Assembly (NCBI GenBank): GCA_000004985.1
Contig: GG739341.1
Source: Naegleria gruberi
Lineage: Eukaryota
Length of the DNA stretch: 1,709 nt
Strand: one strand, 5' to 3'
Shown: positions 1,177-1,709 of the stretch, one piece after another
Position numbering within the stretch: the first letter of the stretch is position 1
How the letters are laid out: the number at the start of each line of letters is the position of its first letter
The notes under the pieces: generated by a model
Seen by the model: only the letters and a program-made list of their open reading frames with translations
Told to the model about the DNA's origin: nothing
Databases searched by the model: none
Made by a program: the position numbers and the translations under genes

Positions 1177-1220
1177 TTTCGACCTTGAACTCGAAAGAAG
1201 TTTAATTTATTTTTAACTCT
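1177..1220 (+). terminator. Weak hairpin (6-bp stem tttcga/tcgaaa, 8-nt loop) followed by T-rich tract; possible 3' end signal for the LRR fragment transcript
   Basis: tttcga(1177-1182)-ccttgaac-tcgaaa(1191-1196) form a perfect inverted repeat, followed by agaag tttaatttattttt (1201-1216). The stem is short and AT-rich, so predicted stability is low. Confidence 0.2.
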
Positions 1221-1273
1221 AAAAAAAAAAAACACAACAAACAACACGACAGTAGCCACACCAACAAACAACA
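1221..1273 (+). repeat. Poly(A)12 tract followed by CA/CAA-rich low-complexity leader immediately 5' of the ATG at 1274
   Basis: a12 at 1221-1232, then acacaacaaacaacacgacagtagccacaccaacaaacaaca running to the ATG. A poly(dA:dT) tract followed by a purine/CA-rich leader is typical upstream of highly expressed eukaryotic (e.g. yeast ribosomal-protein) genes. It would also fit an SD-less A-rich leader as in Bacteroidetes. There is no Shine-Dalgarno motif. Confidence 0.6.
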
Positions 1274-1709
1274 ATGGCAATAATGTATGGAGGATTGGCA
1301 AGAAGTGGTAAAGTCAAATATCAAACACCACGTGTAGAAAAGACCAGCGATTCATCCTATCACGGAGGTTGCGCCAAATACAAAATCAAATCATCAAATA
1401 ATTTATCATATTCGGGAGGTGCTCATCGGTTGGAGAAGAATTTTACTGAAGAGTTGAAAGTCTATGATCAATACAAGGAAAATCATCAACGATGTGATTG
1501 GGTGGAGGAGAGAGCGAATATAAAGAGATCAGAACCTGTTCTTTTGAATTCCTTTCACAAGTTTAATACTGAGAAGGGTTTTAACAAGATGGAATGGAAT
1601 TCAATGAAAAAGGAGGAGAATATCTTGAAGAATAGATACAATTATAATCCAAATGCAAAGAATCATAAAAAGTGGCATAGAAATCATCCTAAAGATGGTT
1701 TATCAAAAG
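1274..1709 (+). CDS. Hypothetical K/N/E-rich protein, 3'-partial (runs off window end); N-terminal 24 aa resemble ribosomal protein eS30
   Basis: ATG at 1274-1276 follows an in-frame TAG at 1253-1255, and the frame is open for 145 codons to the window end. An open frame this long is unlikely by chance in AT-rich DNA. It is missing from the supplied ORF track apparently because it has no stop inside the window. The first 24 residues, MAIMYGGLARSGKVKYQTPRVEKT, match the eS30 N-terminus as I recall it from yeast ([24 protein letters not shown]) at ~17/24 positions. The remainder (SDSSYHGGCAKYKIKSSNN...KKEENILKNRYNYNPNAKNHKKWHRNHPKDG) is unrelated and much longer than eS30 (~60 aa). Confidence 0.55.
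   Translation, partial: MAIMYGGLARSGKVKYQTPRVEKTSDSSYHGGCAKYKIKSSNNLSYSGGAHRLEKNFTEELKVYDQYKENHQRCDWVEERANIKRSEPVLLNSFHKFNTEKGFNKMEWNSMKKEENILKNRYNYNPNAKNHKKWHRNHPKDGLSK

Follow-up and report, generated by a model that had tools for sequence, protein, structure and literature searches.

eS30 is among the smallest and most conserved of the eukaryotic ribosomal proteins. Ribosomal-protein paralogues that act in assembly include Rlp24 (eL24-like), Mrt4 (uL10-like), and Imp3 (uS4-like), which keep the rRNA-docking part and have a different or added C-terminal part; they are conserved across eukaryotes, single copy, and slowly evolving. eS30 itself is located between h16 and h18, on the 40S shoulder, with basic residues near its C terminus lining the mRNA channel and its N-terminal end following h18 and uS12 toward the A-site decoding center (PMC8354635; PMC13517186), and its His5 (human His77) touches the A-site tRNA (PMC13517186). 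In holozoans, eS30 is made as part of a longer polypeptide, the FUBI-eS30 fusion FAU (PMC8354635). No description was found in the literature of a lineage-specific, selected, multicopy family in which this N-terminal eS30 segment is kept and a new conserved module takes the place of the rest. The gene analyzed here belongs to an uncharacterized multigene family of this kind, derived from eS30 and common to Naegleria and Willaertia (heterolobosean amoebae).

The window, that is, the whole stretch of DNA that was analyzed, is one entire small, unplaced scaffold of Naegleria gruberi, 1,709 bp long. An open reading frame (ORF) begins with an ATG at position 1274 on the plus strand and stays open through 145 codons, up to the last base of the window (1709). 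The other two forward frames of 1274 to 1709 contain 7 and 13 stops, and none of the base shuffles of this interval stays open (0/20,000). The first-pass annotation had described a frame open for more than 120 codons past codon 24 and rich in K, N, and E, and both points hold (K 14%, N 13%, and E 9% in residues 25 to 145), with the amendment that the last four codons are frameshifted. Reading the window sequence directly, an in-frame TAG is found upstream of the ATG at 1253 to 1255, and therefore the protein has no N-terminal extension in this exon and no ubiquitin-like domain upstream. The features of the gene are the following.

1212 to 1273, plus strand: putative 5' leader, in which an A12 run precedes CA-rich sequence, near-identical in the metagenome contig L011 (sequence reading).
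1274 to 1345, plus strand: codons 1 to 24, the well-conserved eS30 N-terminal segment MAIMYGGLARSGKVKYQTPRVEKT (Pfam, PDB chains, hhalign, omega).
1346 to 1450, plus strand: codons 25 to 59, the putative rest of the eS30 domain, degenerate and collinear (whole-region profile alignment, PDB alignment, Pfam matches of relatives).
1451 to 1546, plus strand: codons 60 to 91, a variable linker, poorly conserved between species in alignments and of low pLDDT.
1547 to 1639, plus strand: codons 92 to 122, an NSFHK[FY]NT.KG..[KR].E motif leading into a predicted helix at 100 to 122 (alignment, AF2, omega).
1661 to 1699, plus strand: codons 130 to 142, the start of NHKKWHRNHPxDGFYQxR, truncated by the frameshift and the scaffold end (alignments).
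1699 to 1709, plus strand: the scaffold-end stretch with the last four codons shifted (alignment with L011, TTT versus TTTTT).

The window ORF covers, from the 5' end, 85% of NAEGRDRAFT_80950, a genuine protein-coding gene of N. gruberi. It is 99% identical to the predicted protein of that gene (P0001; EFC40560.1, UniProt D2VR82; 169 aa), which is encoded on a 339-kb scaffold and whose 90% cluster also holds EFC35344.1, a 141-aa partial model encoded on the window scaffold itself; the annotated partial model P0164 ends at ...HPKD. In an alignment of window positions 1200 to 1709, L011 equals the window in the coding region except in two places: four changes clustered in codons 3 to 7, and a T run that is TTTTT in L011 and TTT at 1699 to 1701 of the window. 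At the T run, L011 reads GGTTTTTATC where the window reads GGTTTATC (1697 to 1704), and since the run in the window is 2 nucleotides (nt) shorter, the four codons that close the window ORF (LSK) are read in a shifted frame, the deletion lying 11 nt before the scaffold end. The frame in L011 goes on as DGFYQKR... (DGFYQKRTVDANDLECWEDEVIQFSHLYE), which gives 170 uninterrupted codons in total, with a TAA stop at codon 171; the gene in the window is truncated by the scaffold end, and 27 further codons up to the stop lie past it. A homopolymer sequence error where the scaffold ends is the most likely cause of the 2-nt deletion, a defective allele being the less likely one. The whole protein has a pI of 9.2, with an acidic tail of net charge -7. 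The four changes near the start (window 1280 to 1297 versus L011 67 to 87) are I3R, an inserted CAC (His), and two synonymous changes, TAT>TAC and GGA>GGC, the inserted His restoring the HG.LAR of canonical eS30 in L011; judging by the two sequences, these differences could reflect gene conversion or a hypervariable N terminus.

The first-pass annotation had claimed that the first 24 codons resemble eS30 beyond chance, and profile searches bear this out. Residues 6 to 27 match positions 4 to 25 of the 58 positions of Pfam Ribosomal_S30 (PF04758) with an E value of 4.7e-6 and a score of 27.1 bits, marginally above the curated cutoff of 27, and the first 30 aa searched alone, as that annotation had proposed, match the same family with an E value of 3.7e-7. 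The ORF is also matched by 59 distinct eS30 sequences of solved ribosomes in the PDB (best E value, 7.2e-5), and the family N terminus (codons 1 to 24) aligns with canonical eS30 in hhalign with a P value of 4.5e-12. The pattern G-LAR-GKVK-QTP-V--T is invariant or almost so throughout the family (residues 1 to 24, G-LAR[SA]GKVK-QTP-V-KT). The canonical decoding-center residues (yeast K3 and H5) are not kept: the window has I3 and Y5, and the position is variable in the family, usually aromatic. A nucleotide match had been put forward as well; 29 of 39 positions are indeed identical to the string quoted there as yeast, but this adds nothing beyond the protein similarity.

The claim that the similarity ends after codon 24 stands for the remainder taken by itself, which is not significant against the second half of canonical eS30 (hhalign P value, 0.09), but the region as a whole shows no clean break there. 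The best local hhalign alignment of the stretch after codon 24 falls on the collinear diagonal, and a whole-region local profile-profile alignment, built from the first ~60 residues of 22 family members and 69 canonical eS30 sequences, pairs query residues 1 to 59 with canonical residues 1 to 62 at an E value of 2e-15, with a single gap of 3 residues at RRF. HMMER aligned residues 3 to 56 of the window ORF with residues 3 to 59 of Chaetomium eS30. Relatives match Pfam S30 with scores of 28.6 to 38.9 bits; among them, the less diverged P0159 of Naegleria fowleri reaches positions 4 to 47 (E value, 1.7e-8) and P0135 of Willaertia positions 4 to 53 (E value, 1e-9), and environmental members retain a recognizable KK.NGR[AS]KKRKA. 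In codons 25 to 59, GGCAKYKIKSSN-NLSYSGGAHRLEKN stands opposite the canonical GRAKKR..Y.RRFVNV...GK.R..P. with the RRF core deleted, and the family consensus of these residues is Y.GG..KFR.KSS.N..YKSGAHRLE (P0001 numbering). These alignments suggest a degenerate, collinear eS30 domain that reaches approximately codon 59 and has lost the RRFVNV core.

The Naegleria proteins share with canonical eS30 (RPS30, PF04758) the GxLARxGKVKxQTPxVxKT segment and a start Met placed, like that of yeast eS30, just ahead of the motif by a few residues; putative collinear GR.K.R and N....G..R traces would span the whole ~60-residue domain. They differ from it in length, with 169 to 170 aa compared to about 60 (~55 to 65) and ~110 extra residues that carry their own motifs, in lacking the RRFVNV core, K3, and H5, and in forming a multicopy, fast-evolving family. 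Like FAU, they encode the eS30 part within a longer polypeptide. In FAU, however, the partner is N-terminal, ubiquitin-like, and cleaved off, whereas the Naegleria addition is C-terminal, not ubiquitin-like, and without a GG site; in the window, only 5 residues separate the start of the protein from G-LAR, a stop closes the frame 7 codons upstream of the ATG, and the window ORF has no ubiquitin match in Pfam. With Rlp24, Mrt4, and Imp3 they have in common a retained part, presumably the rRNA-docking one, and an altered C terminus, so that those factors could by analogy serve as a model for placeholders or regulators at the eS30 site; unlike them, the Naegleria/Willaertia family is restricted, expanded, and fast evolving.

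The C-terminal module has two conserved blocks. In its broader family form, the helix-region motif reads NS[FY]HK[FY]NT.KG..[KR].E, with K96, N98, K101, G102, and E107 invariant in 5 to 6 sequences, and residues 100 to 122 form the sole confidently predicted helix (AF2; block pLDDT, 81 to 92). The AF2 model overall has a mean pLDDT of 60 and a pTM of 0.32 with this one helix, too poor for a fold search, and the protein is predicted to be largely disordered by itself. The second block is the signature NHKKWHRNHPxDGFYQxR, a basic motif with many histidine and aromatic residues, complete at residues 130 to 147 (P0001 numbering) and followed by the acidic tail; N130 to G142 are invariant in small alignments and nearly invariant across 21 sequences. 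Among 1.84 billion representative proteins, no homologue of the module was found outside the family; Pfam has no match to it, and a PDB profile search gave no significant match, the top nonsignificant ones being a glucuronidase and the C terminus of gammaproteobacterial bL32 (E values, 0.37 to 0.76). On these comparisons, the module appears to be specific to the family.

Two ribosomal resemblances of the signature were rejected. NHKKWHRNH resembles the eL29 N terminus, KNH..HNQ.RKWHRNG, but the PDB profile search returned no eL29 chain at E values up to 10, and there is no Pfam match. WHRNHPKDGFYQKR (P0001 134 to 147; window from 1673) weakly resembles the motif of the gammaproteobacterial bL32 C terminus (H.RHH.T.DG[FY]YRGR; HRRHH.TKDGFYRGR), but the spacing is off by one residue, nothing else aligns, the E values against the PDB are 0.44 to 0.76, and Pfam Ribosomal_L32p does not match at E values up to 10; the resemblance is taken as chance or convergence.

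The family has at least 5 members in N. gruberi (P0001, P0002, P0130, P0133, and P0156), 2 in N. fowleri (P0003, FDP41_006432; P0159, FDP41_000624), 6 in Naegleria lovaniensis (P0004, P0126, P0127, P0129, P0160, and P0163), and 3 in Willaertia magna (P0135, P0138, and P0139), every one of them annotated as a "predicted" or "hypothetical protein." In searches of 5.8 and 1.84 billion proteins, members from named species occur only in Naegleria and Willaertia, and the others lie on environmental contigs. Identity between Naegleria species is 42 to 47%, and the most distant N. gruberi paralogues are 25 to 45% identical to the window gene. The first-pass annotation had described a single ORF that passes from an eS30 N terminus into non-eS30 sequence and had placed it in a eukaryote or archaeon; the N. 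gruberi gene has this architecture. On a 5.7-kb JGI metagenome contig from a eukaryote (L012), three eS30-derived genes stand in tandem at 2874 to 3858, encoding 87, 108, and 100 aa, flanked by eukaryotic genes (LSM, papain-type protease, and Ras); their middle part is more canonical (NGR[AS]KKRKA), and the C-terminal motif is degenerate. A scan of JGI metagenomes seeded on the C-terminal motif gave no member that tblastn confirmed. No member was found in IMG/VR, and a viral origin or capture is without support. An 88-aa protein on an ENA contig (P0140) has a perfect canonical eS30 N terminus followed by a different, unrelated basic tail, and judging by this sequence, eS30 may have been remodeled beyond Naegleria as well.

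Selection was measured as dN/dS by the Nei-Gojobori method on two pairs of orthologues from N. fowleri and N. lovaniensis; between N. gruberi and N. fowleri, synonymous divergence has reached saturation. Overall dN/dS is 0.27 and 0.18 at a dS of about 1.0. Omega is 0.10 to 0.13 in the eS30 segment (codons 1 to 24) in both pairs, 0.16 to 0.27 in the helix region, and 0.05 to 0.34 in the signature motif. The first-pass annotation had asked whether the K/N-rich part is under constraint, and the helix region within it is. Genes flanking the family members are conserved between the two species at both loci: one has an EF-hand gene, NPL4, and a Kelch-BTB gene as neighbors, and the other an importin/Cse1-like gene, a histidine phosphatase gene, and a RING gene. 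Both N. fowleri genes, P0160 of N. lovaniensis, and the N. gruberi-like gene on L011 are single uninterrupted ORFs. Sequence comparison thus indicates that the window gene is real and under purifying selection.

Two side observations concern P0004 of N. lovaniensis. In the P0003/P0004 pair, dS is 0.13 in the 18 motif codons (L001 4373 to 4426 versus L009) and about 1.0 elsewhere, a low value that rests on ~8 synonymous sites and is absent in the second orthologue pair. The P0004 gene model (C9374_009951, 208 aa; L009 3001 to 4008) includes an intron; read without it, the locus is one 179-codon ORF that aligns better with N. fowleri, and the intron is probably an annotation artifact.

As to origin, the sequences are most consistent with an eS30 copy that arose long ago by duplication, diverged, and gained coding sequence beyond its stop codon. 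A complete eS30 gene would have been duplicated before the split of Naegleria and Willaertia, the C-terminal half of the copy would have decayed or been remodeled, and the reading frame would have been extended by ~110 codons beyond the ancestral stop around codon 60, after which further duplications would have given the multigene family. The eS30 trace is collinear up to codon 59, and therefore whole-gene duplication is favored over the capture of 24 codons with a promoter. Such a captured 5' fragment of RPS30 was one of three explanations offered in the first-pass annotation and comes closest of the three, but the event predates the Naegleria/Willaertia split and founded a family. Fusion of ~24 to 40 eS30 codons to unrelated sequence is the less likely alternative, although the second half of the domain does not reach significance on its own. 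We consider it likely that the window holds part of a genuine gene of a Naegleria/Willaertia eS30-derived family, one that arose by whole-gene duplication and whose product would dock on the 40S subunit.

Docking on the 40S subunit or its precursor seems the most likely activity, judging from sequence and by analogy, because the retained part is the eS30 segment that lies along h18 and uS12 and the protein is basic and disordered, as ribosomal proteins often are. The most constrained residues in the family are 6 to 24, and a basic, disordered protein that retains this near-universal eS30 stretch would most plausibly still dock on 40S or pre-40S rRNA. Once docked, it could be a variant or substitute eS30, or a regulator or placeholder that brings the new C-terminal module close to where mRNA enters. 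Whether it binds at the eS30 site itself is uncertain, since the RRFVNV core, which helps anchor eS30, is missing. The searches returned no ribosome structure and no proteome from Naegleria. A tentative and more far-reaching proposal, possible but doubtful on present sequences, is that in Naegleria and Willaertia eS30 became a family, now expanded, whose members dock on the 40S subunit as alternatives, with the retained segment along h18 and uS12 and the new helix, signature motif, and acidic tail occupying or regulating the mRNA entry and decoding region. Such docking could yield specialized or silenced ribosomes, for example, in transitions between amoeba, flagellate, and cyst; in the extreme version, canonical eS30 would have been wholly replaced by proteins of the family.

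The fast evolution of the family (42 to 47% identity between Naegleria species) and its many divergent copies, both unusual for a core translation component, speak against a role in translation and leave room for a nonribosomal one. The eS30 segment could have been co-opted as a generic basic peptide for RNA binding, for nuclear or nucleolar targeting, or for partner binding, with the new module serving an unrelated function. That the family is fast evolving, expanded, and lineage specific is in keeping with a role away from the ribosome, as are the loss of conservation at the decoding-center residues and the eS30 core and the presence of an acidic tail and a histidine-rich motif without ribosomal counterparts. 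We nevertheless regard such a role as unlikely, since the strongest constraint falls exactly on the stretch that is nearly universal in eS30, and a generic basic peptide need not retain G-LAR-GKVK-QTP-V.

The family might conversely be the functional eS30 of Naegleria, that is, an RPS30 with a lineage-specific C-terminal extension that has replaced the short protein. No search returned a canonical Naegleria eS30: none from Naegleria is among the best 120 of the 3,568 proteins matched by a canonical eS30 profile (yeast, human, and Arabidopsis), and none was found in the literature and one supplement. In addition, the N-terminal 24 residues are constrained like a ribosomal protein (omega, about 0.1), and the Pfam S30 cutoff is reached. 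The canonical search, however, covered only those best 120 of 3,568 matches, the RRFVNV core has been lost, identity of 42 to 47% between species is unlike core ribosomal proteins, and one genome carries at least 5 paralogues, the most distant of them 25 to 45% identical to the window gene. Replacement of the short protein by the family is improbable on these grounds, and a canonical eS30 gene is expected to exist in Naegleria.

The other two explanations raised in the first-pass annotation, a decayed retrocopy and an intron, are refuted. A decayed retrocopy or pseudogene with a frame that merely happens to be open, or chimeric assembly of so small a scaffold, would fit a 1.7-kb unplaced scaffold with fragment-like ORFs adjoining the gene and a 2-nt frameshift 11 nt from its end, and this particular copy could be a defective allele. 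But no shuffle keeps the frame open (0/20,000), a protein 99% identical is encoded on the 339-kb scaffold, and the architecture recurs in metagenomes and in separately assembled genomes of four species; a dN/dS of 0.18 to 0.27 at a dS of about 1, conserved synteny, and motifs invariant across the four species contradict decay, and frameshifts in homopolymers where a scaffold ends are typical of sequence error. Decay or chimerism is thus very improbable. An ordinary RPS30 with an intron after codon ~24, its second exon outside the window and the long ORF a mere read-through, of the kind that gives spurious extended eS30 models in other organisms (P0141, P0144, and P0152 to P0154, for example), has practically no chance, since L011 holds the full 170-codon ORF to its TAA with no eS30 exon in the 62 nt after the stop, each gene in N. 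fowleri and N. lovaniensis reads as one ORF, none of these genes has a normal eS30 second half, the downstream protein sequence is conserved under purifying selection, and the eS30 trace runs on in frame to codon 59.

The family is of note both for how ribosomes evolve and for the biology of Naegleria. If its proteins do bind the 40S subunit, they are a natural case, from a deep-branching eukaryote, of ribosomal-protein neofunctionalization or ribosome heterogeneity; without ribosome binding, they are a modest example of gene birth through extension of a duplicated ribosomal-protein gene. Should canonical eS30 be absent from Naegleria, the finding would be far more remarkable. Family members could serve as Naegleria-restricted markers or targets, N. 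fowleri having two copies, and Pfam S30 matches in Naegleria should not be labeled RPS30.

The rest of the window holds no tRNA genes, and its only Rfam hit, MIR530 at 1149 to 1237 on the minus strand (23.7 bits versus a gathering score of 85; E value, 0.11), is far below threshold and was rejected as a chance match in an AT-rich intergenic stretch. An 86-aa ORF at 786 to 1046 on the plus strand has two LRR_6 repeats (E value, 1.9e-6) and resembles part of an RNI-type LRR protein more than an obviously complete gene. At 2 to 688 on the plus strand, a 228-codon ORF that is open at the left scaffold end has a weak Pfam Phage_integrase match (E value, 0.006 to 0.008, below the cutoff) and, to judge from that match, may be the C-terminal part of the recombinase of a Crypton- or DIRS-like element.
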